Source of the DNA: Rhizophagus irregularis
Taxonomy: Eukaryota
DNA: 64,000 nucleotides
Assembly (NCBI RefSeq): GCF_026210795.1
Contig: NC_089430.1
Coordinates: forward strand, 3,410,001 to 3,474,000
Direction of reading: 5' to 3'
Positions 17,209 to 64,000 of the stretch are shown in pieces. The number at the start of each line of letters is the position of its first letter. Positions within the stretch are counted from its first letter, which is position 1. Made by a program: the position numbers and the translations under genes. The notes below the pieces were generated by a model. The model was not told the origin of the DNA, did not search any database, and saw nothing but the letters and a program-made list of their open reading frames with translations.

Positions 17209-17503
17209 AGGACCCCGGATATCTCCAAAACAGGTCATAAGTCACACTTTCGGCAGATTGGCCCATTTTTCAGGGCTCAAAAAATCGTTTTTTGTAAATA
17301 TCTCGGCATCCAGTGGTCCAATTTTGATGAACTTTTTTTTAAATTGTAGAGCTAAATGAGGGCTACAAAATAAAAAAAAGTTCATTAAAATTGGACCACT
17401 GGATGCCGAGATATTTACAAAAAACGATTTTTTGAGCCCTGAAAAATGGGCCAATCTGCCGAAAGTGTGACTTATGACCTGTTTTGGAGATATCCGGGGT
17501 CCT
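17209..17503. mobile_element. Palindromic MITE, AGGACCCC-terminus family
   Basis: Nearly the whole element is an inverted repeat; 8-bp TSD GTATCATG. A decayed copy of the same end lies at ~16195-16234. Confidence 0.9.
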
Positions 17504-26500: not shown

Positions 26501-26620
26501 CGAGAAATCTAGCAAAATGTTAAATGGTGCAGTAAACGTAAATCAAGAAATATTATAATGCCGATGTTTAACATTTTGTTGAATAACTCGTCAGCCAGTG
26601 ATCGGAAAAGGATAAAACAA

Positions 26621-28619: not shown

Positions 28620-28762
28620 AAAAACTAAACTAACTCTCTTCTGTTGCCTTCACGACAATATTGCGACAAAAAATAAAAAAGATTTTTTCGAAGTATTTTT
28701 ATTATTTACTTTGCGTTACTATTCACTATTACATATTTTAGTTCTCCCTTCTACTTTTAGCT

Positions 28763-30770: not shown

Positions 30771-30824
30771 ATTTTACTACCGATTATTTCCCTTTACTAC
30801 TTACTCTTTTATCATAGTGTAGTA

Positions 30825-36221: not shown

Positions 36222-36494
36222 CGGACTGGATTTTTGGATGTTGGATAGTTGACTCACACTGGCCTTCGGGTAAAGTTGGGGTATGCGATTCTGTAATAGT
36301 TTAGTTTTTCTTTTCTTGAATTTATTCTAGTTTAGATTTCTTTATTTGAATGAATCGTGAAGCTATTTTTTTTTTTATTTTTTATTAGTTTATTTTCTTA
36401 TTTTTGGAATATTGTTCGATCACATTCTCGAAGTTTAAATATAAATAAAAGATAAAGTCATAAGACTGTTTGCAAAGGAAAAGGATAAAACTAA

Positions 36495-37503
36495 GGGTTG
36501 GTCACCCTATCTTGGTGGTTAGTCACTGAGACCCTCATTAAGCCTGAGTATGGTGAGGTCGCAGGTTCAATTCCCATGACCACGGAAATAAAAAGAATTT
36601 TACTGCGGACGCTAAAACCAATAGCGTGAAGGTACAGGGGATTAGTGTAGTTGGACTGCATTATGGTGAATTGAGTATAATTAACGGTTAGGCTGCACAT
36701 TTCAACTAAGCGGTCATGGTATCCTTCTAACGTTCCCTATGAGGCCATTGGCATGCGCGCAGTCCTGTCCTCGAGGTCACTACTATACGCTTGGGGAAAA
36801 GCTTCCTGTCCGGTGGTCACCTACGATACCGCAGGGGTCCGAGTAATGGCTAGAAATCGTCCTAGAAGGTAAAGCCTGGGCAGGGTGCAATGTTTTAGCG
36901 GTGAGCGAGACCTTCTGTTAGGTCTTGAGACCAACCAAGGTGTTCGTGCACAGAACAGGTAGCATGGCCCTAACGGGGTTCGGATTCCCTACTCCTTGGG
37001 TGCCTGGTTGGTGATCTCCCCGGTGGTTGATACCCACCATAAGGGGCGATCCCTTGGACAGACGCCGCATACTTCCCGTCGAGTAGGTCACTATAAAGTA
37101 TACCACTCGGGTAAACAACTATACTATCGGTACTAGGTAATCGCGGGCTGTAGTGGCGGCCTTTTGAGTGAAGACAGTACCTAAAATGGGTGGTATGGAA
37201 GGGTACTAGATGGTTGATATTACCTGTCGAAAGTCCTATGAAGTAGATGCTGTTTAAAGGTCCGAAATAAATTGAGTATCAGTATCATGCAATGGGTATA
37301 GGATGAGTAGGCGGCGTGTACCTAGCTTCAGATCAGCCTAAAATGGCCCGATGGGGGATGTCTTCTATAGTGGTGCTGTTACCTAGGAATTAAGTACTCG
37401 GTATAATGGTTGCCCATGAAGATGATAGGACACAGACCCAAGATTACTCATAAGAGCAATGGGTGGTTTGGCCGTAAACGCTTGCAAAGAAAGGATAAAA
37501 CTA
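36495..37503 (+). mobile_element. ~1-kb tRNA-headed SINE-like unit 3
   Basis: Direct copy of unit 1 with many small indels. Confidence 0.7.
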
Positions 37504-38486
37504 GGGTTGGTCACCCTATCTCGGTGGTTAGTCGCTGAGACGTCAAGCCTGAGTATGGTGAGGTCGCAGGTTCGATTCCCACGACCAGCGGAAATAAAAA
37601 GAATTTTACTGCGACATAGCAATGCGTGAAGGTACAGGGATTAGTGTAGTTGGACTGCATCATGGTGAATTAGTGTATACGGTTAGGCGCACATTTCAAC
37701 TAAGGGTCGTAGGTGTCTTTCTAATGTTCCCTATGAGGCCGTTGGCATGTGCGCAGTCCCTGTTCTTGAGGTCACTACTATACCCTGAGGGGGGGACTTC
37801 CTGTCCGGGTGGTCACTCTACGATACCGCTTGGGGTCAGTAATGGCTAGATGGTCGTCCTAGATGGTAAAGCTGAGGGTGCGAATGTCTTAGTGGTAGTT
37901 TGACCTTCCTGTTAGTCTTAGACCAAGCCAAGGTGTTCGTCATCGAACAGGTAGTATGGCTATGGGGTTTGATTCCCTACTCCTTGGGTCCTGGTTGGTG
38001 ATCCCTGGTGGTTGATACCCACCATAAGGGGTGATCCTGGACAGATGCCTGCTACTTCCTGTCCGAGTGGTCACTACTAAGTATACTACTTGGGGTAAAC
38101 AACTGTACTATCGGTGCTATGTAATCGCGGGCTGTAGTGGCCTTTGAGTGAGACTTAGTACCTAAAATGGTGGTATAGAAGGGTACTAGATGGTTGATGT
38201 TACCTGTCGAAAGTCCTCATGAAAGTAGATCTTTCTCTAAAGGTCGTTAAATAAATTGAGTATCAGTATCGTACAATGGGTATAGGATGAGTAGGCGGCG
38301 TGTCTCAGCTTCGATCGGCTAAAATGGCCCGATGGGGGATGTCTTATAGTGGTGCTGTTACCTGAGAAATTAAGTGCTTTCGGTATAATGGTTGCGTTGA
38401 AGATGATAGGACGCGAGCCGAGATTAGTGCCATGAGGCAATAGGTGGTACGCCGTAAACGACTTGCAAAGGAAAAGGATAAAACTA
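37504..38486 (+). mobile_element. ~1-kb tRNA-headed SINE-like unit 4
   Basis: Direct copy ending TTGCAAAGGAAAAGGATAAAACTA, after which the host MITE resumes (CCACCATTCGATTCG). Confidence 0.7.
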
Positions 38487-43387: not shown

Positions 43388-44527
43388 AATAAAGTGTTTT
43401 GAACATTCAACTGGTGTGACTATATAGTAGAATGTGACTATAACGGGAGTGACTATAGAGGGAGTTGACTGTACTTTCATTAAAGCACCAACGTGTTGTT
43501 GAGTCTTATCTATTGCATTATTTGTAACTTTGATTAGTTCCGCCTTTGCAATTTCACGATTTGTTGCATCAGTATGATCTTTTGTTGAAGCATGTTCTCC
43601 TAGAGCAGAAGATTTAAAATTCTTTGAACCTAATAAAGTAAAGATTTAATTAATACAGTATAATAATTTAAATAAATTATTTTATTATTTTTAAATAAAA
43701 ATCATTACCTCCTTTTCCAAATTTATTTTGCTTATTATGGGTTTTGCATAGCGAACAAAACATAAGGTTTTTTGATGTGTCATAAATTAACCACCTATAA
43801 ATTTCTAACCATTCTTTTTGAAAAGTTGCAGTTTTTTTCTTCAATAAAAGATGCGCTTTTTTCTTTTTAAAATTTAAATTTTTTTGTAATATATGTTTAT
43901 TATTTGGTAATTCTTCAAGTTCTGAATCAGTGTCACTAGATTCAGAATGAATAATATCTGTGTCTTCGCTAGGAACTTTTGTTTTGAAATATTGTTTAAT
44001 AGTAGACATTTTATGACGCGTAATATGAAAATTTTGATTATCAAATGATGATCTATAAAAATATAAAATATATGCCACCAATATACAAAAAATTTTGCCG
44101 GATAAAAATCTGTTGATCTTAAAAATATTCTGGAAAAAAATCCATTCTATAAAATTTTTATCGGATTTTCTTTAAAAATTCTGGTTTTTGCCAGAATTTA
44201 CAATACTATTTTTAGCTCTGACCTAAGGTAAGGTTTACATATAAAACTCTTTGAAAATCCTATTATAAAAGGAAATTTTATGTTATATTGTTATGATTTT
44301 TTTCCTTTTTAATCAATTAACCAATAGAATTTAAGCAAATTCTAAAGTAAGATTTCATATGAAAGTAAATTTTTACCAGTAACATATCTTAGTAGTAGGC
44401 AGGGTCCTACTTTATAGCTAAAACATTACCCCAAGTCTTGAGATAATTAAGTATTTTAAATTGAGACTATTTAGAAAAGATATCATATACGACTATTTTT
44501 TGAATATTATTCTTGAATGCAGACTTA

Positions 44528-45715
44528 CAGTGGACATCAAAAAAAACGCACCAAACTTTTTTAAAATTATTAATTGTTCTTATTAAATCAATTTAAATTC
44601 AATTAAAATAAAATTTAAAACTTAAATAATATATGGTTTGGCCTACTAAAAAACATAAAATTTAATATTAATTTACTAATTAGTTTTTTAATTACATAAC
44701 ATTAAATCAAAACAACTTGGTGCATTCTTTTTGCCACTTTAAAATTTTTAAAAAAATCAAAATTTTCACAAAATTATATTATGCTTTTATAATAAAAAAA
44801 TGTAAAATTAATTATTAAATAGCTTAAATTATTAATTAAAATTAAAAAAAGTCAATACTTTTTAGTAATAAATTGATTAATTTATTTAATGAATATAATT
44901 AAAAATTACTATAAAACATATAGATTTTACAGTTTTTATTATAACAGTTTTTCTTAAACTACATTAAATCAAAAAATTTTATAGTAAAATAATACCCAAA
45001 ATTAAATTCTCCTAATTAAGGGGAATTTGCGAAAAAAAAAATGGAGTGCAACGGACCTTTAGATAGTGAGATATTACTTGTTAAAGTATGGCAATGATCT
45101 TCATTTTACATATAGTGTAAATCATTTCTATATGTAAAATGAAGATCATTGCCATACTTTAACAAGTAATATCTCACTATCTAAAGGTCCGTTGCACTCC
45201 ATTTTTTTTTTCGCAAATTCCCCTTAATTAGGAGAATTTAATTTTGGGTATTATTTTACTATAAAATTTTTTGATTTAATGTAGTTTAAGAAAAACTGTT
45301 ATAATAAAAACTGTAAAATCTATATGTTTTATAGTAATTTTTAATTATATTCATTAAATAAATTAATCAATTTATTACTAAAAAGTATTGACTTTTTTTA
45401 ATTTTAATTAATAATTTAAGCTATTTAATAATTAATTTTACATTTTTTTATTATAAAAGCATAATATAATTTTGTGAAAATTTTGATTTTTTTAAAAATT
45501 TTAAAGTGGCAAAAAGAATGCACCAAGTTGTTTTGATTTAATGTTATGTAATTAAAAAACTAATTAGTAAATTAATATTAAATTTTATGTTTTTTAGTAG
45601 GCCAAACCATATATTATTTAAGTTTTAAATTTTATTTTAATTGAATTTAAATTGATTTAATAAGAACAATTAATAATTTTAAAAAAGTTTGGTGCGTTTT
45701 TTTTGATGTCCACTG
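44528..45715. mobile_element. Tc1/mariner-type foldback element: 588-bp inverted arms with 12-nt spacer
   Basis: CAGTGGACATC...GATGTCCACTG with TA TSD. Arms are 44528-45115 and 45128-45715. Confidence 0.85.
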
Positions 45716-46733
45716 TATATCCAATCATAATAGTCAAATCATCTTTTTAGAAACGTGTTGTTAAAATTTCTTTTTTTATTATCAGACTTTCTAGACTTCT
45801 TTTTTTTGCTTTTTGGATCTTTTTGAGCAGAAGTTTTATTTTATCGTTTACATCCAATTGGAGTAGTTGAAAATGGTCAACCATCATCATCAGGTTTTCA
45901 TTTCACAATATCAGCAAAAGTTACCATGCAGTTTTTTCATTTTGGAATAAATGGCACGACTTTAGTGTTCAGAGTTTTTATTTGTGTTTCAACATTCACG
46001 TCCTGTGATTGGTACGTGGTATCTTTAAAAATTTCTATATCTAAAGTTGGTGAACACAGATATATAACCTCCTGATTGGTAGATTTTGTTGACATGTTGA
46101 AGTCAGGTGATTTTTTTTTAAGATTCTGAGTTTCTCACTTAAAGTACATCTAAGTGTATTGTAAAACTCCAAGAAAGCCAGTATTAAATACATAAAACTT
46201 TTCACATTAAAGGCTTCAGTTTTCATGCATTTTCAAACTAAAGTTTTGTAGAGATTTTTTAATAAATAGTCTATTATTTCAGATTTAAAATGGTCTTATA
46301 AACTTTAGCTAATACCTGTAATACTAGTCTTAATAAAATGTTTAAAAACTACTTTAAATAAACTGATAAACTCTTTTTCTATAACATTGCAAAGTACTTT
46401 TTGTGTTTTTTTCAAGTATATTTAAGTGTTGTTGGTGTCGTTTTTAGCCATAATTTATAAAAATAAAAAATTTTTTTCTTCATAAAAAATGGTTTATATG
46501 ATTAGCAGTCAGAATTCTCTCATTATATGTCCAGTTTGAATTTAATTAATATAATATATTGATTTACTTAAGTAAATTTTATTTTCTTAAATAATTGTAA
46601 TATAATTTGATATTTCAGATGGTATAAAATCCATATAGAATAATACTTTATTAGATTGAAGTAGAATCAGAATCCCACTTACTTATAAAATAGGTTATCA
46701 GAAACCTAAAGTAAAATTTATAATTAAGAATTT

Positions 46734-49149: not shown

Positions 49150-50210
49150 AAATGCTAAGGTGAACCAGATAATGAATCCCCTAACCACCTTATAGCAATC
49201 AACTAGGGGCACGTCAGGACACGATATAAAGCATTAAACTCTACTCTTATAAGCAAAGGTGGAGTAACCATTCCCCTATACTTCCATATTACCATACTAG
49301 GTTAGATGTATTTTAGTCATTTTAACTAGACATTTCAGTATAGTACATTAAGTATAGTAAGAGTCCAAACTCCATTTTTTATAGTTCAGAGACAATCAGC
49401 CTGCACAGGTAGATATAATGGAGCTAACATCTAGAAGGCTTTTCATAGTAGTTTTAACTGGTATAGTCTTATTTAAAGCCCACTATAGGTTGTGATTATC
49501 ATTCCAGTCAACCATAGTTTTTAATCCCCAATAGTATAGTAGTGACTATCAGAACAGTAAGCTCTAAGGGTATAGGATCCTCCCTATATTATAAATGACT
49601 TACCTCAGCCTAAGGTTGCCTGCCTAAACCTCTTCAAAATTCTACGATTAGTTTCTCTAAAATTTTACTATAGTTTTATTATAGTTTTGGCAAGATTTTG
49701 GCAGTTTCAGCATTTATAATAAGTTTCATCAGTTTCACTTTTCTCTAGAGTTTCGCCAACTTTTTAATAAAACTTTTATATAATTTCAGCAAAGTTTCAC
49801 CATTTCGACATTTTGCTAACTTGCCAAAACCCTCTAGTTTCTTCAGCAACCTTATCTCAGCCACCTAGGGTTTACTAGCCAATACATCAAATATGCTGAA
49901 GAATCGAACTTCACCTCAGAACCTTATATATCTGTAAACCAATAAACATCAAAAGTTTAAACCTATTAGAAGGTAAACTACCGCAAAGATATTGCACATA
50001 GGACTTTACCATCTATGAACCCTATCTAATATGCAAAATTCACAATAAAGTTTAACACATCCTTAGTAGTATTGTAAAGTAACTACCAAAACAAGAATCT
50101 ACCTAAATAATATGCAAGCAGTGACTATCTAGACAGGACAATTGACTTACTATTGCTTCATTTTTAGAACAGAGAACACCATAACTTTCTGTTAAAATGT
50201 GCAGTATACC
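49150..50210 (-). mobile_element. Decayed relative of the 1-kb SINE-like unit
   Basis: Three blocks match the reverse complement of unit motifs: GAACACCATAACTTTCTGTTAAAATGTGC (~50174), AGTGACTATCTAGACAGGAC (~50119) and CTTCCATATTACCAT (~49281). Confidence 0.5.
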
Positions 50211-50390
50211 CTATGAAAAGGTTTTATACTTAAAATATACTTAAAATTTTATTAAAATATACTTAAAATAAGTATCAATTTTAATTTGTGATATACTTAT
50301 AATATACCTAAAATATGTCTAAAATAGTCTTAAAATATACTTTTAATATACTTGTTTTTTGCCCAAGTACTTAAATTATACTTAAAGTAT

Positions 50391-50450
50391 AGTAGATAGA
50401 TCAAGTAGGCATCACTATAATTATAGTGATGCCTACTTGATCTATCTACT
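50391..50450. repeat. Perfect 60-bp palindrome at the left edge of the virus/plasmid-like element
   Basis: AGTAGATAGATCAAGTAGGCATCACTATAA|TTATAGTGATGCCTACTTGATCTATCTACT; the half-site TTATAGTGATGCCTACTT is repeated at 50455-50472. Confidence 0.95.
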
Positions 50451-51080
50451 TACATTATAGTGATGCCTACTTATAGATATTAATACCTACTTACTTATTT
50501 TTACGTGTCTATGCCCCTTCTGATGCTTTATTGCTACCCATCTGTTTTCACTGGTCTGTGACTGTTTGGTTGCTAAACAGGGCGGAGGTTTGTTTTTCCA
50601 TTTTGAAGCCTTTTAACAATTGTATAGGAGTAAAGTTGGGTTTTCCACTCTATGACCCTTTTGATTACCATATTTGAGGTCGAGGGTGTGGTCCATTCGC
50701 TGGCCTTTTAAGTTGCTGAAATGGTGTAAAAAAATCATCGGGTGGCGCAGTTAATTTGCGGATCAGATTTTGGCCGGCACTATGGCATAATTTCTGGCCG
50801 ATCTTTAGGGCGGAATATCTTGGCTTCCTGTGATTAGCTTCGTGCGGTTTTGTGGTCATTTGAAAGAGGACGTTGAGAGCTTTCCAATGATGCTAAGATC
50901 GCATGAATTGGATGCCTGGATGCCGAGTTATTACGTCTCAAAGTTTTTGAAAAAAATATGGATTATAGTGCTAAGCAAAATTAAGCGAATCTATACTGCG
51001 CCTTACTGTGCCAGTCACGTGATACTGTTCTGGTGCCGGAACACCCTCACATAGTTGCTTCCCTCTCAATTGCCATTTCT

Positions 51081-51350
51081 TGATTGCCGGATGAGGCACA
51101 AAATGCCGAATTTGCAATCCATCTATTTGCCGAAGATATTTTACAATCCATTCCCTCACTTTTTGATTCAGCGGATGAGCACGAAGTGCCGAATTGGTGA
51201 CCTAGATGTGCAATCCTGCCTTCCATAACCCTTTTGATTGCCAAGGATGAGGCACGAAGTGCCGAATTTGTGCCCATTCTTGCAATCCCGCCCTTTATAT
51301 GCCCTTTCTGATTGCTGTGTGAGGCTCATGCGAAGTGTCGAATTGGTTCA
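51081..51350 (+). repeat. Four ~75-bp direct repeats, each with a GGCAC-GAA-GTGCC-type hairpin
   Basis: Consensus GATTGC..GGATGAGGCACGAAGTGCCGAATT..TGCAATCC at ~51081, 51164, 51235 and (degenerate) 51309. Confidence 0.8.
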
Positions 51351-51735
51351 GGCTATATCGCTTTCATATCTTTTTTCGTGTATTCTCCTGAACCTTTCTG
51401 CCTTTCCAGTCTCTTTCCTGCCTATCGGTGGTAGGCCACTCAAGTGAAATTTCTCTTTTCTTTCCTATATATAATTCTGCTTGAGTGGGTTACCATAAAC
51501 TTGCTTGTTTTCGCCTTCTAGCTCTTGTTCCTGTATAGTTTCTACTCTGGGATACTTTGGAGTACTACTACATCGATTACTTTTAGGCATTATTATATTG
51601 ATTACTTTTGGTACTACTACTGATCCAGTATTTTGCCCGCGCTAGTAAGCATATTCGCTCAAAATTATATAGAATTTTTATTTTGAACTTTGCTAGTTTC
51701 TCTGTTATTTTATACTGCTTTCTTGCATATACACC

Positions 51736-54700
51736 ATGCTTCTTGCGCAAAAAAATGCTGGGCCTAACCCCGGAGTAATAAAGCTTTTCTCAGGCTTAAC
51801 TGACCTTAATTATAAGCCTGGTCATAATAATCATGTGTATTTCCAAAACTTGTCTATCAGTAAAGATGATGTCGCTCTTCTAGATACTTATAATCCTAAA
51901 GAGATTTTAAATAAATATATAGTTCGGGTTGCAGGAAAGGGCTTTACAGTGGTCGATCATCCATCCGAAGTTTATGGGTTTTCTGATGCTCACGAGTGCA
52001 TTGATGGGAATTTGCCTCTCTGTCTGGTTCTGGATATTGATGCGAGGCAAAAGCCCGATCCCATGAATCCTAAATTTCCTTCCTTAGATGAGAGTAAAAT
52101 TTCTCGTGAAGATTTATTATCCAAAATCTTAATTGCCTGTGTCGATATTATAAATACTGATTTAAAGCATTTTGCAATATTAGATGCTTTTACTTTAGCC
52201 AGCTCGTCTAATGCTAATAAATGCAGTTGGCATATTGTATATAAATATGCACGGTTTATTGACTACAGAGATCTTAAGGGTTTTGTGGAAAAAGTCGCTG
52301 ATAAGGTTGGAAAACCATACTCAAAGTTTATTGATATTGGACTTTATAAATATCGCTTTAGTCTCCGGCTCCTTGGATCAGCAAAGGAAGATAGAGTTAA
52401 AAGACCTGCGATTTCTTCAGTTAAGAAAGGATATCACAAGCTAGAAGATTATTTAGTTCAGCCTAAGTGGAACGCTTCTGAAATCTGGCCACGGACCTTT
52501 TCTTCTGAGAAAGAAGAGAAGAAATTTCAGCCCATCGAAGATGAAACCGCCTTAAGTAACGGAGCCAGCTTAGTTATAGCAAAATATGGATGGCTTGAGA
52601 TCGGAAAAATTGGGAATGGATTTGTCCACTTTCAAGCCCAATTATATGAAGTATATCCTATTTGTGAAATCAAACACGAGAAGGATCAGTTATATGGCTT
52701 TCTTCGAAGTAATGGCTGTTTTGTACTCAAATGCTATCGGCAGAAAAATTATAAACCAGATCATAAGGGATTAGCGTTTGGAAAAGTGATCGAAATTTCT
52801 GCAAAACCTAAGAGAGGAATAGTCGAAAGAATAGGTGATGCTATATCAAATCCACGCCCCCTTGTAGAATTATCAGAGACAATGATTAATGTAGAAAAAT
52901 TAAAGGATGCTCCAGAAGTATATCCCGATTTCTTGGGTATTGAGAAAACGACAACACTTATTCGTTCTCCTCCAGGAACATGGAAAACCACTACATTAAG
53001 AGAGATTATTATGGCATTGAAAAATAAGGTATATGATCTCTCTTCTTGCCATGTTATATCTGGGTTTCTTACCGAAAGTCTCTTAGTAATGAATCAAAAA
53101 CGAAACTTGATGAGCTAAAAGCATCTGGTTTTCGAATTTGCAATTATCAAAATATACAAGGAGACTTATCTATAAATGAGTGGGATATTATCATAGTACA
53201 GGTTGAGAGTCTTTTTCGTATCGAGTTTACAGCCCGTCCATTTGTAGCTATTCTTGATGAAGCTAATGCCATTATGCGTCAAATGTCTAGCGGTACAAAT
53301 GCACGAGAATCTGAGAATGCAATACGTGATGTACTAAGATCTGCGAGACATGTTTTGGCCATGGATGCTTTTGCAAATAAATCAACACTAACCTTCCTCC
53401 AGACTTATCGTGGTGAAAATATTTGCATAGTTGATAATAAGTATCAGCCTCGTATAGGCGAGACAGTTGAATTTATTTATGATCCGAATAGCGGAGCTGA
53501 AGCCATGCGAATAGGATATGATCTTTTGAGGCAGGGCAAACGTGTAGCATTCGTATCTACTGGAGTAGTGATGGCTAGAGCGCTAGTAGAAAAAGCATCT
53601 AAGTTGTTTAAACCCGACAATTCTCCTGTTAAAGCCCGTGCATATTATGGGAATATGGATGGGAAGCAGAGACAAAAAGACTTCTCTAATATTGATGTTG
53701 CTTGGGGTGAGCTTGACTGTGTAGCTTACACAAATACAGTGGAGGCGGGAATATCATTTGAGGTTACGGGCCATTTTGATATAGTTATAGCTATTACAAA
53801 CATCGCCACTCCAGTTCATGTTGAGGCTTTTGCACAAATGCTTTATCGAATTCGTGACTGTCCTCGTCGTATTGTTTCTGTGTTTTATCAAAAAAATTCT
53901 AATGAACTTTTTCGTCCACCAGGTCGTGAAAATATCCGAGCAGAACTTGAAAGTGCTCGACCTAATAATTTGCCTACATCAATAAAGGGTCACCGTGAAT
54001 GGGATAGCAACGCCGTTTTTTATAAAATCGATGAATCTCCTGCTGTAATAACATTTGTCGAAGTTGAGCATCAGAAACGGCTTTCTGCGAGATATTTTAT
54101 TGAGAAGCTTTGTAGTCTTATAGCCAGTACTGGTGCTTCTCTCCAACTAATAAAAATGGATGAGAGCCGAGGAGTTATAGGGAATCGTAAAAAAGTCTGC
54201 AATGAGGTTAGGGTTGAAGCATTAGTTATCAAGGAAACAGATTTTGATGCGGTTGCTACTTCCCGGAATCTTGATCTTGAAGAAGCTGAAAATCTTAAGT
54301 TTGACCAAGAACGCTCTATCCCAGATACTATGGCACTTAAACGTTTCTATATGCGAAATATTTATGGTAAAGATATGGATGATAAGATTTGGGATAATCT
54401 TTGCAATAAGAAGTTTGTAAAATATTTTAGTCCGCCTGAACCTCAGAAACATTTCTTGCGGTTATCTCACTTTCGAAAGCAAGGCTATGATGAGGAAAGT
54501 GCAATGAAAGGGTTAGAGGCCAAAGATATTGCGCAATGGGAAGATAGCCATTATAAAGCTAGATATAATTCTGAAAAATCAGTAGCGGAGGACTTGCACA
54601 AATCATATTCAGCTAATCATTGGAAAGTTATAAGAGAACTCTTTCAAATACTAGGCTTTACCGGCATAGATGATAAGCGTATTCTTTCCAGTAATATAAT

Positions 54701-55046
54701 ATCAGAAACATTCACACAATCCTGCGAGAGGTTTATAAAAGTCCTGGATCAATCCCTATTACTCTTCGGATTTAAGTCTCGTGCTAAGGTAACATCGGAT
54801 CTTAATTCAGCTATAAGGGCAATTAATGCAATTGCTGGAAATTGGTGTGACTATACTGTAAAGATAAATAGGAAAAAAATAGGGCCTAAAGAAAAACAGG
54901 TTTGGGAACGTTCATATCAAATTAATCGGCAACCATATGATGGTCTTGGTTTTGGAGATAAAGGTGCGCCAGAGCTTCCACCATATAGGCTGAAAACAGA
55001 TAATGATATTCAGGAACTCTTTGATTCTATAGGGCAGGACAAATAA
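51736..55046 (+). CDS. PrimPol/AEP primase + Zn finger + UL9-like (origin-binding protein) SF2 helicase fusion; one frameshift near 53045
   Basis: AEP motifs LVLDID, KCSWH and IDIGLY...SLRLLGSAK. Zn-finger-like PICEIKH...KCYR. Walker A-like IRSPPGTWKTT, WVSYRKSLS, QVESLFR, ILDEA, AMDA, YTNTVEAGISF and QMLYRIR. Intronless. Confidence 0.8.
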
Positions 55047-55071
55047 TATTTCAGCCCAGATAGTTATTCAG

Positions 55072-55308
55072 CTAAATCTTGACCATATTAGATTCTGTTT
55101 TAGTTTTTTTACTTTCGCGCCAGGCACGGTCATAAAATCTGCTATGCGTGCTACAGATTCCAGTATCAGAATAGGTTCCCTGCCCGCAGATAGGGCATAT
55201 TGTTCTAGGAAGGGCATTATAATGTCTGGCGCATCCTAATTTACTCATGCTTCCTTTTCCACAGTTCGAACCATCTCTCTTGATGTATTGGCAGATAAAA
55301 CGACCCAT
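55072..55308 (-). CDS. Small Cys/His Zn-finger protein
   Basis: C-x7-G-x2-C...C-x2-H followed by CPIC...C-x2-H; paralogous to 61136-61393. Confidence 0.6.
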   Translation of the reverse strand: MGRFICQYIKRDGSNCGKGSMSKLGCARHYNALPRTICPICGQGTYSDTGICSTHSRFYDRAWRESKKTKTESNMVKI

Positions 55309-55525
55309 ACGAGGTAATTTTAATATTAATAATCTTAAAACTTCACTTTCACTTTTATTATAGATATTTAAAAATGCGATGTCTCAGCGGGTCATATCTC
55401 CCAAGATATAATCAGAGAAATGCTCATGCAAATCACCTTCGGCCAGGTGGGATATAATTTTTCGAATTGAATTTTTTCTCACATAATATAAGTAGAAGAA
55501 ACAACTGAAGTCTACTTATATCGAC

Positions 55526-56846
55526 ATGTCTACTGCAGAACCCACTCAAAAGACCCAGAAAGTGAAAACTAATAAATTCGTTTTGATTCTAGAACAGTTC
55601 TTAGAAAGATATAACTTATCCGCAGAGTCCAGCCCAGAGCAATTAAGCGAACATGCCCCTGAACTTAATGCTTTACTTCCAGATTGGAAGGCCCGTAAGT
55701 GCGTTAAGGAAGCCCTTGCGAGAGCGGCTGAAAAGAGAAGTGCATTTAGCAAAGAGCAGAAAGAGGCTCTCGTGCCAGATCAGAGAAATATGATATATTC
55801 AGTCAGGGAAAAGGGCTCAAGAAGTCGCTAAAAGTGAAGATAAGTGGGATATTTTTATTAATACTTTAGATTTGGGACCAAAAGGAAGTAAGGATGGAGT
55901 AATTGATGATAAGGAAATGGTTGCTTCTAGCTCAAACCAATCACGATTTCGTAAGTATTTAGCAGAGTACGGGGCCGATCGTGAACTTATTGATCGCTAT
56001 GCCAAAGATTTGAAGACCACTACAGCTTCCAATAAAATCCAGCAAGAGCGGACTGAGAAGCGCTTGGCTAATCCAGGTAGAACTCCAGAACATTTCACCT
56101 TTGAGAAAGTGCATAGGAGACTCCAGAATATCGATACTTCTAAAATTCCCTCTATGCAGGATCTCGCGGATGTGATAGTGATGCTGAGCATGAGGCCTGC
56201 TGAAGTATCATCTCTCCAGATTATTAATTACAAACCAGATTCTGAAGATCCGCCAGCGTGGTATAAAGCTGGTTATTGCGGTCGGTATTGCACTGGATGT
56301 CGCAAACAGAGAGATAAACCGATGCCTATGCGCTTACTCTCTATGGAAAAGGATCTAGAACGTGCTAGGGAATTACTTACCTGGATTCAAGACGCTATTA
56401 AGGCTGGGAAGTTGCGTGATCCAGTTTATACTGAAACTGAAAAGCGTAATAATGTGCCATTTGCCAAATTCATAAAGAGTTTAAAAACTAATCAGGACGA
56501 AGATGAGATTACCCCCGAGCTTCTAAGAAAAATAGGAGCTAAACACGCCTCGATGGTTCATGCCAGTCCAAATAAAACCCCTCAACATCTCGACAATCTT
56601 TCAGAAATCGCATTAAGACATAAAATTAACCGTCTTGATGCAGGAAAAAATTACGCTTTGGGTGATCCAAAATCGAAGAAGGAGCCCAAATCTGAACCAG
56701 AGACAGGTGATGGTCCAAAACCCCAAACACAGGCTTCTTCACCTGCATCTCAGTCTAGAAATAACGATCCAAAAAAGTCTCAAACAATGGATATGGATTC
56801 AATGTTAGCAGAAATTGATGCAATGTTAGCTGAAATTTGGAAATAG
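55526..56846 (+). CDS. Tyrosine recombinase, protelomerase/telomere-resolvase-like; one frameshift near 55810
   Basis: Ordered motifs MLSMRPAEV (R), TGCRKQR (K), LLRKIGA (R), ALRH (H) and KNY (Y). The frame of ORF 55872 stays open upstream into ORF 55526, implying one gene of ~440 aa. Confidence 0.6.
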
Positions 56847-57030
56847 ACGAGCTATACACAGCGCCTTCGGCCAGATTGTGCGATAAATATTCAGTTTATT
56901 TTTTTCAGATATATAAAAATGTTAAGAAGTGATATAGATGAAATGCCAGGTTGATTAATCAGCCCTCCCTTATTTCTCATATTTGTTCAGAAAAAGAATA
57001 GATTAATTGAATCGGACAAACTATCTGGTA

Positions 57031-57246
57031 ATGGCTAAAAAATCAAGAAATAACAGGCGCAAGACAATGGGTAAGTTTACTACTAATCCCACACAATATT
57101 TCTCCCTATGCAATCCAGCCAAATATGAGCACACATATGATAGGGCAACCGGCTTTATCACTGTCAAGAATAAAAGACAGGATAGGATTGTAGGCGTGTT
57201 CGATTATCCCGAGCTGAGTGAATATCTGGGAGTTCGATCTAACTAG
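57031..57246 (+). CDS. Small basic hypothetical protein
   Basis: 71-aa ATG ORF in the gene-dense element, with natural composition. Confidence 0.4.
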   Translation: MAKKSRNNRRKTMGKFTTNPTQYFSLCNPAKYEHTYDRATGFITVKNKRQDRIVGVFDYPELSEYLGVRSN

Positions 57247-57431
57247 TCCGGAGCGGTGATCACTTCGCTCGAAAGAAGAATTTGCTGGGCCACTCCTGTG
57301 CGACAGAAAAATAAGTGGATCAGCAGTCAGCCTCATGTGCAACATAATTTTCGCATATACTGAAAAGAAGCTATGCACGCTACCAGTACTTTATTTTTTA
57401 TTAAGTATAATTGATCTACAATATTAGCAAA

Positions 57432-57815
57432 ATGTTTGATGAGGATATAGATGCTGAGAAGGAGAAAGCCTTCGATGAATTTACCAAAGAATATGGACAG
57501 AGAGAAGAGGATTGGACTATTTATGATGATTGGTATGACTGGGATGACCTTTTTTGTGAAATTAAGACCCATTGGAACACAAAAGCTGTCAAGTATTGGA
57601 GAGAGAAAATACTTAAGCGATTTGTATATAGTCTACCCAGTGTAAGTAATCCAACGTCATTATTCCATGTACTCTTACAATCCAATGTTATTTATCTCCC
57701 ACAAATAATAAGTCTAATAGAATTGCCATATTATCCACTTGAACTTCGATCAGAAATATGGGGTCCCTCCAGGACCTGCCCGGATGGTATATATTGGTCA
57801 GTCCGAGGTCAGTGA
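57432..57815 (+). CDS. Hypothetical protein (acidic, Trp-rich N-terminus)
   Basis: ATG ORF preceded by the repeated intergenic motif at 57265-57360. Confidence 0.45.
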   Translation: MFDEDIDAEKEKAFDEFTKEYGQREEDWTIYDDWYDWDDLFCEIKTHWNTKAVKYWREKILKRFVYSLPSVSNPTSLFHVLLQSNVIYLPQIISLIELPYYPLELRSEIWGPSRTCPDGIYWSVRGQ

Positions 57816-58416
57816 TCTGGTCCCTTTAGGACCTCTTCAGCTCGGAAGAATTTGCTGAGCCACAGATTGTGTGACAGAAAAAGGCCGATCACCAGGCAGG
57901 GTTTGTGCGACATATTAATTTTCACATATATATTCGAAAAACATATTAACCTTTATTCTTTATTTTTTTCCCGAACAAACATGAGGAAAAAATGGCCTGC
58001 TTCACAGGCGCTTCGCTTGAAAGGAGGTCTAGTTGGAGCACAGGACCAGCTCTAAAAGTAAATAGTGCCGACAAAAGCATATGTTATGAAAGGCTGAGGA
58101 CTTTGGAATTTCGAGATCGCCAGGCGTAAAACCAACTATGTCTTTCCGGTAGATCTACATGTGAAAAGGTATGAGAATTCTATTTGCATGTGCCTTCATA
58201 GAACTCTTGGCATCATACGACAATGCTAATCACTATTCTTATTTCCTTAACTTCGGCTTGGCGCTCTTTTTCCAGCAAGATATAAAGTATGTAGAGATAT
58301 GTGGAAGTTCAGCCAACTTTCCGCAAAAATAATTGAGGTATGTATATGCCAAAAGTCATGTTTACTGCAAGCGATAATTTCTCACAACGGGCCCTTGCAT
58401 TCCAGAAAACGAAAAT

Positions 58417-58731
58417 ATGGCCAATATTACTCTCAACTGCCTTATAATTCCCACCGGTCGCTTCACTGGAATTCCAAACAATGATGCTAATCTAACGGTT
58501 ACAATTCCCCTTGGAAATACAGTCAGAAATCTTCACGCTCAGATTCAACAACAGTTACCTCAGCAATTCAGAAATGTCCCATTTTATCTTCGCGCACTCC
58601 GCTCTGGGCTTGTAAATTACGTTGCTATGCGACAAGGGGGATTGATTTCTAATTATTTTGATGAAAATCTCACTGCGGACGTTTACCATGTTCTTATAGA
58701 GGATGATGTATATGGTTATTATGACTTGTAA
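58417..58731 (+). CDS. Stand-alone Crinkler (CRN) N-terminal ubiquitin-like domain protein
   Basis: ITLNCLI...LTVTIPLGNTVRNLHAQI...FYLRA...YHVLIE matches the CRN header pattern, including an HVLV-like end. Confidence 0.6.
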   Translation: MANITLNCLIIPTGRFTGIPNNDANLTVTIPLGNTVRNLHAQIQQQLPQQFRNVPFYLRALRSGLVNYVAMRQGGLISNYFDENLTADVYHVLIEDDVYGYYDL

Positions 58732-59005
58732 TGCGAAATATTCGTGCGAAGCGCCTTAACGGCCAATTTTTATGTATTGTAAGCCGGCTACCGGCAACTA
58801 TTTTACAGTATTTCATAAATAAAGTATTATTTTATCGAACGTATATGAGAAAGGGTCACGTGTAATGATGCAATGCCTGTGCTACATAAAAACCTATATT
58901 AATACCCAGTATTCCCTTTCCCGAACAGATATAAAATTTTATCTCACTCCGAACGTAACACTATTTTTTTGTCCGAGCCTATTATCACTATAAAAACGTA
59001 ACACT

Positions 59006-60274
59006 ATGTCTTCTGAAACCAGTACACCTTATACTCCAGCTTCCACCTCTACTACTGTTGCTGGAAATGAGACTGTCTCGTTGGCGGACGAAATTAAAAA
59101 ATATGATACGGCCAAGCTTATAGATTTCTTGCGTGGGGAAAAGGACTTACTTCTTAACGATGCTCATTTCGAAATTTTGCGCAAACGAGAAATAGTCGGT
59201 CGAGCTTTCCTCAACATGGACAAACAAGATTTCAGAGATAGTGGGTTTGAAATAGGAACAGCCATAGTACTTGCGGACTTCGCTAAGGAGTGTAAGGAGA
59301 AAAAGAAGCGTGCGTTTTCCTCATACCGCAGTTTGGAGGAAGTGTTAGAAAAATACGGCATTAAGAGTAGTAGTATAACGAGCATCCCCCAGTTCACACC
59401 AGGTAAGTTATGCACATGCCAACCTTTTTCGTTACGAATAGCAACTCACGTATTCTGAATTTATAGTCCCCCACACAATCGATGAAAAATCTCCAGAGTT
59501 TAAGCTCTGCATTGATGACATTCTTCGTAGGATAAAAAACATGGGGCCAGTCGTAGATAGTAATGAGGCTATGCGTTGTGAATACATTTCTACAATCCTT
59601 CATACTGCTGTCAGCATCCTCGGAGGATTGGTAATCTTACCTCAGATGAATGTATCTGGTGAAGAAAGTTCCGGCCGTGTAGATTATGCGATCAAGAAAA
59701 TACTGGATGATTTGCTCGAAGAAATAATATGCATAACCGAAGGAAAGCAAAACCAGCCAGGGAAAGGAGTGGCTCAGAACCTTATGCAATGTCGAAGTTC
59801 GTGCGAAGTAAGTAATACCTTTTTTATGTCTAGCCTCCATTCGATTATCCTTCTATCAGAAAATACTAACAAATCCTCATCTGTAAACATAGATGAACTT
59901 AGATACGCTCAAGAAAAAGCGTACGGCTGATGAAGCATTCGAGGAGTATGAATATGTCTATGGTATCGTCACAACAGGTGAGAAAATGACTCTAGTGAAG
60001 GTTTCTGTTTCGCTTTTGCATCACTAACTCTCACAATTTCTTAGCCACGGACTGGTATTTCATTCTACATAGCACCGAGGCTATCTATTGTACGAGCAAG
60101 ACTGAGTATCGCATCTCTCTGACTGAAGACGCACTCAAGGACTCAACCGACTTGCGCAAGAATGTGAAGAGGATTTTAGGGGTTATAGTGGGCTTGTTAA
60201 GAGATAGGGTATCAGCTAGTGAGGAACCCGCAAATAAGAAGCGCCGTGTAGAAGAAATAATCAAGAAAAAATAA
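59006..60274 (+). CDS. SAM-like + PD-(D/E)xK nuclease (Crinkler-associated family); exons 59006-59402, 59467-59807, 59893-59977, 60045-60274
   Basis: Three clean GT-AG introns give an intact frame. SAM-like LIDFLR...IVGRAFL...GF.IG. Nuclease motifs NEAMRCEYIS, GRVDYAI, ITEGKQ, GVAQNLMQ and YGIVTTATDWYF. Confidence 0.8.
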
Positions 60275-60456
60275 TCATGTATATTAGATAGACATCATGT
60301 ATCACGGGCTACGTCCCGAACATTTGTATTTATTTTTCGCATGTATTAATAAAAAAAAATTTGAATTTTGCAGATAAATATGATAAGCGAAAAAATATAT
60401 AGTCATGGAACTGCCATTCCAGGGCTATAAACAATTATTTATATCGTAATCACGCC

Positions 60457-61008
60457 TTAGCAAAATGCTCGCGCTAGAGCCAATATATGTTCTGGCCCTA
60501 AAACACTAGTCTTGGTAAATGCATCATATAATGCACCCGGTCTATGCTTCGAAGGAATTAAATTTGAATGATGGAGGAATTTCATAAGCACGTCGTTCCT
60601 CCAAGTTTTCATCTCTTCTTGCTCCCAAGTTATTCCTATTAACGTAGTCAAGTTATCAATGGAATAGTTCATTTGGATTAGATTCTGGAGCGAAGATCGT
60701 TTATTTTTTTCTAGAGTAAATAGACTCATTCCTCCCATAACAGCAGACTCCACACTAATAATAAATTTTTCACGAATATCTGCTCTAATTGCTAAGACAG
60801 ATAGAGGCGGAATTAGAGCTGGGTGGTAGAAGTCGGCTAAGGGATCCAGCTCAAATTCACCTACATATATGATTCCAATGTCTTCTAAATAATCTGAGAG
60901 TCTATCAACATATTTATAGCCTTCCCGAATCAACTTCTGGAATAGCTTTCTGTTTGGATCGATCCATCGGCCGGTTAGAATGTTGAGTACTGTTTTTTCC
61001 GCGTTCAT
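60457..61008 (-). CDS. Hypothetical protein with N-terminal N-x-x-TGR-x-I motif
   Basis: Intact intronless 183-aa ORF. VLNILTGRWI...LFQKL resembles the NPxTGRxI motif of large-DNA-virus proteins. Confidence 0.55.
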   Translation of the reverse strand: MNAEKTVLNILTGRWIDPNRKLFQKLIREGYKYVDRLSDYLEDIGIIYVGEFELDPLADFYHPALIPPLSVLAIRADIREKFIISVESAVMGGMSLFTLEKNKRSSLQNLIQMNYSIDNLTTLIGITWEQEEMKTWRNDVLMKFLHHSNLIPSKHRPGALYDAFTKTSVLGPEHILALARAFC

Positions 61009-61135
61009 AGATGATGATTTATGCTGTGGTATATGATTAATCGTTTACGATATACTTTTTCCACCACAGTTCAATTAGGATTTTCTCATTTTGAAATTCG
61101 AATTCTATAATGTGAAAGGTGCAAGAATATAATAA

Positions 61136-61393
61136 ATGGAACGTCTTACCTGTCCCCACATTAAAAAAGATGGAAGTGTTTGTGGCCGTGTTTGCACTCG
61201 CTTGGTGGGATGCTCGCTCCACTGGAAATCAGGTGCAAATAATATGCTAAAATCTCCATGTAGAATATGCGATAAACCTACATTATCTTATACGGGCTAT
61301 TGCTCCAAGCATGCCAAAAAAATTTATCGTCGCCTCGAAAGAGAGAGGGAGAGGCAACGAGATGTCTTATCGCATATTACTCATTCACTTTAG
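61136..61393 (+). CDS. Small Cys/His Zn-finger protein
   Basis: CPHIKKDGSVC...CSLH...CRIC...GYCSKH; paralog of 55072-55308. Confidence 0.6.
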   Translation: MERLTCPHIKKDGSVCGRVCTRLVGCSLHWKSGANNMLKSPCRICDKPTLSYTGYCSKHAKKIYRRLERERERQRDVLSHITHSL

Positions 61394-61546
61394 TGAACAA
61401 ACATTAGTCCCGGACTTTAATAAAAAATTTTCTTGGCAAAAGTGATCTGTGTGTCAAATTGTCACGCGACCATGATTTTTTTATCTATTACTATACTAAC
61501 TCGAACTTTTGAACTATCCCATCTCATATAAAAAGTATTATCAAAC

Positions 61547-63139
61547 ATGCAATCTGAGATTGATTCATTGAAAGAAATAAATTCGAAACTCTTGGCCGAG
61601 ATTAGTGAACTTAGAAAGGAGAATGCCGAAGTCAAGGCTGAGAATATCGAAGTTAAGGTTGAGAATGCGAAGTTAAAGCATGCTTTGGAAGAACATGAAG
61701 CCAGATTCACGAACCTAGAACAGAGAGATAAAGAAAAGACCAACCTTATTGCTAAATTAGATGATGATATCAGGGAAATCAAACAGGAACAAAATGTTAA
61801 TATTTTGGCACAAAGCAATACATTCATACCAAAGTCTCCAATTCATTCAATAAGTTCACAATCATCTATTTCGCCAAATATTGAGGGGATTTCAAAGCAA
61901 TCGGATTGCTCTGATCATTCTATTGAAAAGAATAATGCTGACCCTATATCTCAGGATTTCGATTCAATACCTTTAGATCAAACTAATATATCTTCCGTTG
62001 TAGACCAGTATGATACTACCGAATCTAAATCATTGGAGGATGATAGAGAGACGGATTCTTTCTTAGATGAGGTGCATAGGAAGAAGGTTAGTAATGAGAT
62101 AAGGGAGAGAAAGCGGAAAATAAAACTTCAGCATGAATTAACTACCCAAGACTCATCCTCAGTTACTTCTGTCTCATCCTGTCCACCCACTAGTTCGTGT
62201 TCAGGGAAAAATGTTGAGAAACTATGTTTGAAGGAGAGAGACAAACAGAACACTCCGTCACATCAAAAAATCCTCTATAGGGAAAAAGTGGAGCGAGGTT
62301 TAAGGCAGGAACTATCATCTTTTTGCAGTAAGGACAGCGATGGTAGGGTGTTTGACATTCAGATTCCCGAATTCTCCTTAGAAGCGATTCTAACAGGATC
62401 TAGTAAAATTACAGCACAAACCATAGTCGAACTATTTAATGTAGCAATGAAGGTCAGACATAAGGAGATACTATGCTGGTATTGTTACTATAAAGCGTAC
62501 GAGGATCGAATTAGGGATTTTAAATCTACGAATAAGATTGACGACCAATCGGCAAGGACATTGGTATACAGCGAAATCAAATCCCTTCTTCCAGACATTA
62601 CTGACGTGAACTTGCGTAAAATCACTTCTAGAGCTAAAAAGGTTTATGTATTATTCGAGGGGATAGGAATAGATAAAATTCAAGCAGTTACTTATAGCGC
62701 AAGTGCTATTTCAAGTTTGATAGAAATTCAGATCCAAGGCATTATAAGTTGTTTTCCCAAGACTTATAAGTCTTCTACGGATGATACAGATGAATGCCAA
62801 AAAATGATCAGCGTGACAAATCGTCACGCGCACGTGACTGAATCTTCTGAGGTAAGCGCATCAATGATTTCATCAGTCACACCTCAAGCAAGTAGGACTC
62901 ATGACCGCACCTATTTTCGCAACAAGATATTGGATCAATATCCTAATCTATATAGAGAATGTAGTAGTGAAAATTTCGATTATTATGGAATTACTGATGA
63001 GACATCATGCGGAGTCTCGAGAGAGACCATCTGCCCATTATGCAAATTAGGTCATAATGATGAAGAAATAGAAGGTAGGTATAAAGCCGGATCTTACTTT
63101 ATTAAGTGTGAACAGCATGAAATTGAGATAACTGCATAG
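61547..63139 (+). CDS. Coiled-coil hypothetical protein with conserved helical domain and C-terminal CPLC..H motif
   Basis: Intact intronless 530-aa ORF. N-terminal ENAEVK heptads; central WYCY...ARTLVYSEI...NLRKITSRAKKVY.LF..IG; C-terminal CPLCKLGH. Confidence 0.7.
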   Translation: MQSEIDSLKEINSKLLAEISELRKENAEVKAENIEVKVENAKLKHALEEHEARFTNLEQRDKEKTNLIAKLDDDIREIKQEQNVNILAQSNTFIPKSPIHSISSQSSISPNIEGISKQSDCSDHSIEKNNADPISQDFDSIPLDQTNISSVVDQYDTTESKSLEDDRETDSFLDEVHRKKVSNEIRERKRKIKLQHELTTQDSSSVTSVSSCPPTSSCSGKNVEKLCLKERDKQNTPSHQKILYREKVERGLRQELSSFCSKDSDGRVFDIQIPEFSLEAILTGSSKITAQTIVELFNVAMKVRHKEILCWYCYYKAYEDRIRDFKSTNKIDDQSARTLVYSEIKSLLPDITDVNLRKITSRAKKVYVLFEGIGIDKIQAVTYSASAISSLIEIQIQGIISCFPKTYKSSTDDTDECQKMISVTNRHAHVTESSEVSASMISSVTPQASRTHDRTYFRNKILDQYPNLYRECSSENFDYYGITDETSCGVSRETICPLCKLGHNDEEIEGRYKAGSYFIKCEQHEIEITA

Positions 63140-63314
63140 TCTTACCCCCTCAATCAAAGATTTCGGGGTGGGAGAAAAGTGATATATTTCTTACTTGCAG
63201 GCTCGCAGGCTCGCAGGCTCCGTATAACAGATAGGTTTTTTTTTCTCACCCTGCAGTTCGAAGAATAAAGGGGCGGGGATTTAAATTGATCTGTGATCAT
63301 AGAAAAAAGGAAAC

Positions 63315-63866
63315 ATGAGCGAATCCAATAAAATATTAACTCCCGAATACCTAGATTGGCATGCCAAATTAAGTGGGCTACCAAGCGTTTTGACAGATAA
63401 AATTCGCTTCAAATTTTACAAAAGATATAAAAAAGAAACTGGATGTGAGCCATGGCAATTATCAGAAGATCGCCTTCTCATAAATTCGAAACCAGAAAAC
63501 AAAGTATCCTATTTAACTTCTCCTGAGCAATGTGAAGAAAAAGGGCCCATCACTTTCGAAGCCAGACCCGATCCAAAATTAATTATTAAGTCCGTCTTAA
63601 AGCACTTCCCATACTTGAAATTCGGAAATAGTTTCAGAGGGATTGATAATTATGATTTTACATCACCTCAGCCGTGGAGCTCACCATGTCCTATTTGCGA
63701 TGGAAAACATGGGAATTATGGATTACATGGCTCATGGTACTGCGAAAATGGGAATCAGTTCCCTTATGATCCTGAATTAGCGAAGTTGTATTTCCAGGAT
63801 AAGTTGGAATATTGTCTTACCTGCAATACTTCAAGCAATAAACTAAAGTTCGCAATTGTACTGTAG
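63315..63866 (+). CDS. Hypothetical protein with CPIC..H motif
   Basis: Intact 183-aa ORF. Its C-terminal half (ILKHFPYL...DNYDF...CPICDGKH) parallels the end of ORF 61547-63139. Confidence 0.55.
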   Translation: MSESNKILTPEYLDWHAKLSGLPSVLTDKIRFKFYKRYKKETGCEPWQLSEDRLLINSKPENKVSYLTSPEQCEEKGPITFEARPDPKLIIKSVLKHFPYLKFGNSFRGIDNYDFTSPQPWSSPCPICDGKHGNYGLHGSWYCENGNQFPYDPELAKLYFQDKLEYCLTCNTSSNKLKFAIVL

Positions 63867-64000
63867 CATAGGACAAAAACAGATCATGTGAAATCAATCA
63901 CCCGAAAAAATGTACTCATTGCCATGATAAATGCACTGCTGAAATAATAGGACTGTGCAAATTCCAAGGTAAATGAAATTTTGGTCATATGAGAATTTTT

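Follow-up and report, generated by a model that had tools for sequence, protein, structure and literature searches.

A predicted hairpin telomere resolvase family on a multi-copy mobile element of the mycorrhizal fungus Rhizophagus irregularis

A tyrosine-recombinase gene in the Rhizophagus irregularis genome is, in the reading that we favour with somewhat better than even confidence, a frameshifted copy of a gene encoding a predicted hairpin telomere resolvase (protelomerase) on a multi-copy element, whose intact copies would replicate as hairpin-capped linear DNA. The gene lies in the 64,000-nucleotide stretch analysed here as a whole (hereafter the window). Judging from modelled structure, we regard the enzymes as a real and undescribed protelomerase-like family, carried on a fungal mobile element with the anatomy of a hairpin replicon. 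Hairpin telomere resolvases have so far come from bacteria, phages and algal giant viruses, and no description of a protelomerase or telomere resolvase in connection with Rhizophagus, mycorrhizal fungi or Glomeromycota was found in the open-access literature. The closest eukaryotic precedent is the resolvase of phaeoviruses, for which the accessible text of its report describes a site of telRL type, the integrase being a separate enzyme (PMC13236599). If our reading is right, the hairpin replication strategy would reach a eukaryotic chromosomal repeat, and repeat-rich mycorrhizal genomes would contain a new type of mobile element. The prediction is directly testable, because intact copies occur naturally and a candidate 60-bp substrate has been located, and an enzyme that acts on a new site within eukaryotic nuclei would be of interest to makers of closed-end linear DNA.

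The coordinates of the features are listed in Table 1. An earlier note on this DNA had described an unannotated tyrosine recombinase with the catalytic arrangement of protelomerases, interrupted by a frameshift near 55810. Two reading frames, 55526-55831 and a second one to 56846, indeed constitute a single split gene, and the break could be located at 55806-55808, where the window has GGG and the close metagenomic relatives (6/6) have GG. Intact close relatives of 437-438 aa are on record, among them P0004 (97% identity) and P0005 (93% identity), and therefore the frameshift is particular to the window copy or its assembly. The database protein P0003 (402 aa), whose C-terminal 345 residues are identical to the window gene, bypasses the break; it is named 'uncharacterized', and the gene is unannotated in the functional sense. 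All five motif residues pointed out in the note (R, K, R, H and Y) are in place at 56193, 56304, 56526, 56619 and 56652, with the Tyr 11 residues past the His. The slot of the HxxR His is occupied by Glu (56517-56519), and the second Arg is encoded by 56526-56528. At 56278-56281, there is a 3-nt insertion relative to other copies, which turns SW into CGR directly ahead of the catalytic Lys.

Table 1. Positions, within the window, of the resolvase-like gene, its motifs and the element that carries it.
Feature	Position	Strand	Remark
Protelomerase-like tyrosine-recombinase gene	55526..56846	+	about 438 codons when intact; frameshifted in the window copy
Frameshift in G run	55806..55808	+	one extra base compared with 6/6 close relatives
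First catalytic Arg (MRPAEV), predicted	56193..56195	+	aligned with TelK R275
Catalytic Lys of GxxK (GCRK), predicted	56304..56306	+	aligned with TelK K300
E-x-x-R (ELLRK): HxxR-His slot and predicted second catalytic Arg	56517..56528	+	Arg aligned with TelK R383
Conserved Arg-His (LRH, within ALRH)	56616..56621	+	aligned with TelK LGH motif; His at 56619-56621
Predicted nucleophilic Tyr	56652..56654	+	11 residues past His, as in TelA and ResT
Perfect palindrome, 60 bp, central hexamer TAATTA	50391..50450	.	left edge of element; candidate telomere-resolution site
Extra copies of 16-nt arm motif, one exact and one degenerate	50457..50492	+	within element; candidate binding sites (inferred)
Host AT-rich repeat interrupted by element	50209..50390	.	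other copies of the repeat differ past 50391
Likely extent of element inside window	50391..64000	+	GC 38.6% vs. 23% to the left; at least 13.6 kb
Primase-helicase gene	51736..55046	+	single ORF in locus L030; frameshifted near 53040 in window
Small Cys/His-rich protein	55072..55308	-	between helicase and resolvase in related loci
Two small genes	60457..61393	.	homologues adjoin resolvase in locus L036; within 1.08-kb segment skipped by other copies

By simple counting, dN/dS is 0.21-0.37 against seven distant loci and 0.39-0.84 against five close loci, some of which contain stops. This pattern fits a gene that is functional in its lineage, with individual copies decaying. The resolvase of the window copy is likely inactive, as its reading frame suggests, while the left site is retained. 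In each of five RNA runs, 5-7% of the sampled words were present.

Does the protein resemble the resolvases in its fold? An AlphaFold model was built on 123 sequences for 55809-56666, which leaves out the first 94 residues, and reached a pLDDT of 90.4 and a pTM of 0.82, with only 61-65 in the last 16 residues (the Tyr helix). In the Foldseek comparison with the PDB, TelA of Agrobacterium occupies the first six ranks (best E 9e-5), and all five matches at E<=0.001 are TelA. In the VIA-align comparison with 48,161 chains, TelA scores Z 13.8 (251 aligned residues, rmsd 5.2), TelK 11.9 (249, 5.3) and ResT 9.3 (141, 4.0), followed by the best integrase, lambda Int, at 7.6 and variola topoisomerase at 5.2, and the same order was found in a second comparison. 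The TelA match covers the entire model (residues 1-286 vs. TelA 132-409, including the TelA linker helix 198-217), with a high rmsd of about 5 A, which counts against the resolvase reading. An N and a Q conserved in the linker helix are candidate counterparts of Tyr201 and Arg205 of TelA. In a language-model search of the ESM Atlas, the top three clusters are ResT/TelK (0.96-0.97). In a library of viral structures, where no match reaches E 0.001, the ResT/TelK-domain protein of EhV-86 ranks second and the best matches are from algal giant viruses. The structure comparison that had been proposed in the note therefore places TelA, TelK and ResT above every integrase in two aligners and supports, for the modelled protein, a tyrosine-recombinase fold and, within it, the protelomerase branch. 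The fungal family is thus predicted to share the common fold of TelA (Agrobacterium), TelK/TelN (phiKO2, N15) and ResT (Borrelia), that is, a catalytic domain, a linker helix and a helical N-terminal part. A first model on 59 close homologues, with a pLDDT of 60.8 in the catalytic domain and no fold match, was superseded. A type IB topoisomerase was also considered, because of a KxLR motif, and was ruled out by its Z of about 5.2.

The note had left the role open as integrase, telomere resolvase or both, and on the predicted structure the resolvase role is the best supported. An unlikely alternative is that the enzyme descends from a protelomerase and now acts as integrase or excisionase only, in the manner of Cryptons or Starships, with a circle intermediate and with the palindrome described below as its binding or attachment site. 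The full-length match of the model to TelA and TelK, with a Z nearly twice that of any integrase, argues against it, as does the replication helicase that the element carries. A symmetric palindrome without spacer is, moreover, the site type of protelomerases and not the asymmetric-spacer type. The element nevertheless sits at many sites, a scan of 13 window ORFs revealed no further integrase, and the host junction coincides with the palindrome's outer edge to within 1-2 bases in the few contigs available, as in a site-specific reaction. The host target is also near-palindromic once the continuation of the loose ends is read on.

At the level of sequence, the relationship is far more distant. 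Searches of PDB sequences with the family gave no matches, and hhalign against eight protelomerases gave a probability of only 2% (E 0.025). In that low-probability register, TelK R275, E278, K300, K380, R383 and H416 fall on matching residues of the family. The GxxK motif had been likened to the GQAK of protelomerases; GQAK is the TelK/TelN motif and is aligned with GYxK of the family. The resolvase profile PF16684 matches neither the window protein nor, among the families listed (25 of 40), any of 123 family members, and the same listed families include no recombinase or resolvase at all. Since the profile test failed, the family is classed as working like the resolvases and not as a member of PF16684. 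In TelA, the active site is composed of R255, K286, Y363, R366, H394 and Y405, and the slot equivalent to residue 363 is usually occupied by Lys in topoisomerases and by His in recombinases, according to the accessible part of that study (PMC3558466). The spacing of 11 between His and Tyr is that of TelA (H394/Y405) and ResT. The model ends four residues past the Tyr and is aligned there to TelA 409, likewise four past Tyr405, which, given the pLDDT of 61-65 in this helix, is an indirect check of the nucleophile only. The likeness to TelA, TelK and ResT extends to the R-K-x-R-H-Y order, the non-His residue in the HxxR slot, the His-Tyr spacing (in TelA and ResT) and a perfect palindrome on the same replicon. 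However, the fungal family differs from them by the lack of a detectable sequence-profile match, by LRH or LRQ in place of LGH, by Lys, Ser, Arg or Glu at the HxxR slot, by a eukaryotic nuclear host and by a site 5 kb off the gene, and its function is a predicted one.

Homologue searches returned 109 proteins for the window protein and 356 (120 of them listed) when started from a distant relative, as well as 403 representatives after clustering at 50% (150 of them listed); by these searches the family comprises several hundred proteins, functionally unannotated. Every organism name among the matches listed belongs to Glomeromycota, with Rhizophagus irregularis as the source of the closest named proteins. 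R, K, R, H and Y are also retained in three divergent Ala/Arg-rich metagenome proteins (P0352, P0355 and P0348), and from their sequences the family may reach past Glomeromycota; when three divergent, GC-rich-looking members were used as seeds of a search, two of these seeds were all that came back. Several homologues from Gigaspora margarita (P0023, P0024, P0078, P0128, P0136 and P0187) are labelled 'D5-like helicase-primase' or 'integrase' by their source, the former of which looks like a mis-annotation.

The conservation of the five residues was scored on 229 aligned proteins, of which 132 have all seven scored columns filled and 97, being fragments or gapped, were excluded. R, K, R and Y are jointly present in 111 of the 132 scorable homologues, so the proposed conservation holds for these four. 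It holds less well for the His, which is retained in 91 of these 111 and is Gln in 17; within clade A, Gln takes its place in 17 of the 51 proteins that keep the other four. Counted over the proteins with the respective column filled, clades A and B have the first Arg in 100/102 and 99/117, the Lys in 79/81 and 101/103, the second Arg in 87/90 and 82/94, the His in 47/77 (with Q in 29) and 96/99, and the Tyr in 80/81 and 96/99, respectively. The Arg directly ahead of the His is invariant in clade A (78/78). Many other alignment columns are comparably conserved, and consequently the active site is not singled out by conservation alone.

It should be noted that the missing His of HxxR had been taken as a mark of protelomerases. 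Its absence is borne out across the family, since the slot is Lys in 70, Ser in 30, Arg in 18, Glu in 9 and Gly in 5 of the 132 scorable homologues and His in none. It is not diagnostic, however, because a family member at locus L047 and an annotated plasmid protelomerase of Anabaena both have a His there. Lys is the usual residue in the family, as it is in TelK, and Glu occurs in a minority (9/54 in clade A); the Glu of the window subgroup, at a slot otherwise held by Lys, His or Tyr, counts against replication as a hairpin-capped replicon.

Then, where is the candidate site of the enzyme? The 60-bp palindrome at 50391-50450 has 30-bp arms with zero spacer, whereas the longest perfect arm in 100 block shuffles was 14, and it is the only perfect palindrome in the window with arms longer than 11 bp, the next longest arm being 11. 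The region is covered in part, and as a repeat, by contigs of six public runs, and those of four runs were aligned to 50150-50900. In all four, contigs of the host repeat diverge at 50391 (4, 7, 7 and 8 contigs). A 611-nt contig of run X1 leads from 50422, the centre of the palindrome, into the element at a depth of 358, compared with 29 for unique-looking contigs leftward, contig depth being a sign of repetition only and not a copy number. Therefore, the palindrome is part of the element and marks its left boundary, and the element is multi-copy in the fungal chromosomes. The arm is kept to 50390 or 50451 with different flanks in three contigs of two runs (two contigs of X5 begin at 50390 and one of X1 exits past 50451); with 24 of 139 loose ends covered, the fixed arm length rests on these three, one of which could be the other end of the element. 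One X1 contig departs at 51770, and depth drops about threefold by 52005; position 51770 could mark the inward end of a 1.4-kb terminal repeat, present at both ends or in non-autonomous copies.

The palindrome would be the substrate of the enzyme. In all five phage protelomerase loci compared, a perfect palindrome with arms of 11-44 bp occurs near the gene, and in the stretches examined of two plasmid protelomerase loci (L130 and L131) there is none. The palindrome is 5 kb from the gene here, compared with about 165 bp upstream of it in N15 and phiKO2. This distance, together with several fold-back repeats in the window, could suggest that the palindrome is an unrelated small repeat or an assembly artefact and that the substrate lies elsewhere. 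Other long inverted repeats are present in the window, and palindromes are therefore not rare by themselves in the R. irregularis genome. Such an unrelated origin is nonetheless very improbable, since contigs of independent runs join the palindrome to the GC-richer interior of the element, the arm motif recurs within the element, and the step in GC from 23% to 38.6% begins at the palindrome, at about 50391. The fold-back repeats, with spacers of 12-13 nt, are located at 44526-45717, 17209-17503 and 9977-10206, the largest having 590-bp arms that are 100% complementary. The arm motif occurs in 0 of 57 short metagenomic loci, and two IMG/VR matches to a 17-nt arm motif, which are non-palindromic, were rejected as chance.

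The right end of the element is probably past 64000, and a continuation of the host repeat, which would indicate that end, is absent from the rest of the window. Inside the element, the helicase part of the primase-helicase matches the Pfam families Herpes_ori_bp (E 8e-15) and CyRepA1 (E 2e-35, with a score below the cut-off of the latter) as well as phrog_4913, the RepA family of N15 (E 1e-12). N15 RepA (gp37) is itself a full match to CyRepA1 and phrog_4913. Compared by hhalign, the window helicase matches N15 RepA with E 3.4e-5 over 326 columns, while herpes UL9 is closer (E 1e-18); direct BLASTP against N15 RepA was not significant. None of the primase PHROGs matched by N15 gp37 is matched by the N-terminal half of the window protein, which we take by motif to be AEP-like. 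The primase-helicase is present in six of the eight metagenomic loci with at least 1.1 kb ahead of the match, and the other two have the small gene that is found between helicase and resolvase in L036. The linkage was tallied by hand for 23 of 57 metagenomic loci, and L035 and L036 turned out to be the same element, so that not all the counts are independent. The linkage persists at 32% protein identity, in L036.

The element has, then, the same three parts as the N15-like plasmid-prophages with TelN, RepA and telRL, namely a resolvase-like gene, a helicase of RepA/CyRepA1 type and a palindromic site. From these three parts, and from the palindromes at the five phage protelomerase loci, we infer hairpin resolution by intact copies. 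Taken together, the predicted fold of TelA/TelK type, the replication helicase and the palindrome at the edge suggest that the element is likely copied as hairpin-capped linear DNA. In contrast to N15, however, the fungal element is integrated in chromosomes in many copies, its primase half is unrelated by the profiles tested, its helicase is nearer to herpes UL9, and no partition, capsid or lysis genes were seen among the window ORFs.

Could the region be a piece of some larger endogenous DNA virus (Polinton-like or related to giant viruses), with the resolvase acting on the viral ends and insertion left to a separate integrase, a division of labour that has been proposed for phaeoviruses? 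We give this only a low probability. The start of the element terminus, AGTAG, is presumably Polinton-like. At 8-10 kb downstream of the resolvase homologue in L047 (9054-10976), a frameshifted gene and an ORF with PHROG endonuclease matches are found, which by motif, and without Pfam support, we take to be a P-loop ATPase-like gene and an integrase-tail-like part, possibly Polinton-like. The best viral structure matches, to algal giant viruses, and the nearness of the helicase to herpes UL9 also favour a viral source. Asfarvirus-like genes are carried by R. irregularis, as stated in the accessible part of one study (PMC5294986), and phaeoviruses encode a distinct tyrosine integrase in addition to a telomere resolvase, as far as the accessible description goes (PMC13236599). 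However, the scan of window ORFs gave no capsid, polymerase, ATPase or integrase, for an element that continues past the window. IMG/VR, GTDB genomes and phage records yielded no relative of the enzyme; IMG/VR likewise yielded none for the L036 helicase, and phage and plasmid records none for the window helicase, all of these being searches that reach close relatives only. Furthermore, the accessible text on phaeoviruses describes a resolution site apart from the attachment site (PMC13236599), whereas here the palindrome abuts the host junction. The endogenous elements of Ectocarpus phaeoviruses are likewise integrated in a eukaryote with a telomere resolvase and a telRL-like palindrome. They belong to giant viruses that form virions, use CC attachment sites and have an integrase apart from the resolvase, as far as that source goes (PMC13236599), while the 13.6 kb of the fungal element seen here include neither virion genes nor a second recombinase and have the palindrome at the host junction.

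Returning to a hairpin-capped replicon, the reaction would proceed as follows. The intact enzyme would bind as a dimer to the two 30-bp arms, cut both strands 6 bp apart around TAATTA via 3'-phosphotyrosine, and reseal the cut strands into hairpins. Cleavage 6 bp apart followed by hairpin rejoining is described for protelomerases in the accessible part of (PMC3558466). At an integrated copy, resolution would release the end of the element from the chromosome. The primase-helicase of the element would then make replicated telomere junctions, from which the resolvase would regenerate hairpin-ended monomers, as TelN does for N15. Insertion might take place by capture of an opened hairpin end at a chromosome break or by a second reaction of the same enzyme, and the outer arm abutting host DNA fits either. 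We know of no established integration route for an element with a resolvase only, and yet this element is multi-copy. A bolder idea, which we put forward only tentatively, is that one protelomerase is responsible both for excision of the element, as hairpin-capped linear DNA, and for its insertion at new chromosomal sites, which would constitute a new class of eukaryotic self-replicating transposons, in Glomeromycota and probably in other eukaryotes. If the enzyme does integrate as well, it would be a natural case of telomere resolution and insertion by one enzyme.

Other small mobile DNAs share part of this anatomy. Cryptons, Glomhopper (DUF3504) and Starships (DUF3435) are likewise multi-copy fungal mobile DNA with tyrosine recombinases, and Glomhopper even has the same host group, as far as its accessible description goes (PMC13465315). 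In contrast, the element described here has a predicted fold of protelomerase type, its own primase-helicase and a terminal perfect palindrome. Neither DUF3504 nor DUF3435 matches the window protein in Pfam, and neither is among the families listed for the 123 members. In the accessible text, Glomhoppers are DUF3504 Cryptons, and telomere, helicase, primase and palindrome go unmentioned there (PMC13465315). Transpovirons, too, are small selfish DNAs that encode a helicase together with small proteins binding nucleic acids; according to the available part of their description, they are linked to giant viruses, consist of 7-kb linear DNA with terminal inverted repeats, have no recombinase mentioned and are not described as repeats of host chromosomes (PMC11788076).

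The remaining content of the element and of the window is as follows. A 1.08-kb segment of the element (60335-61415), which contains a small ORF along with a second Cys/His-rich gene, is skipped by contigs in several runs, and homologues of its genes sit between helicase and resolvase in L036, which suggests a movable module. At 58417-59930, three short ORFs with a weak Pfam match to the Crinkler N-terminal domain (E 0.0046, below the cut-off) look like Crinkler-type cargo, with pieces that we take by motif to be SAM-like and nuclease-like. Outside the element, a repeat family whose core is palindromic and in which a 147-bp spacing recurs occurs in both orientations at 6134-6702, 14443-15326 and 26108-26485. 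The region 18971-20626 is presumably a host gene with introns, bHLH transcription-factor-like by motif. At 26614-38303, a long retroelement-like reading region (28742-36221), which by motif we take to encode endonuclease, reverse transcriptase and RNase H, has two copies of a 1-kb repeat on each of its sides, and a tRNA-like stretch is located at 26666-26727 within that repeat.
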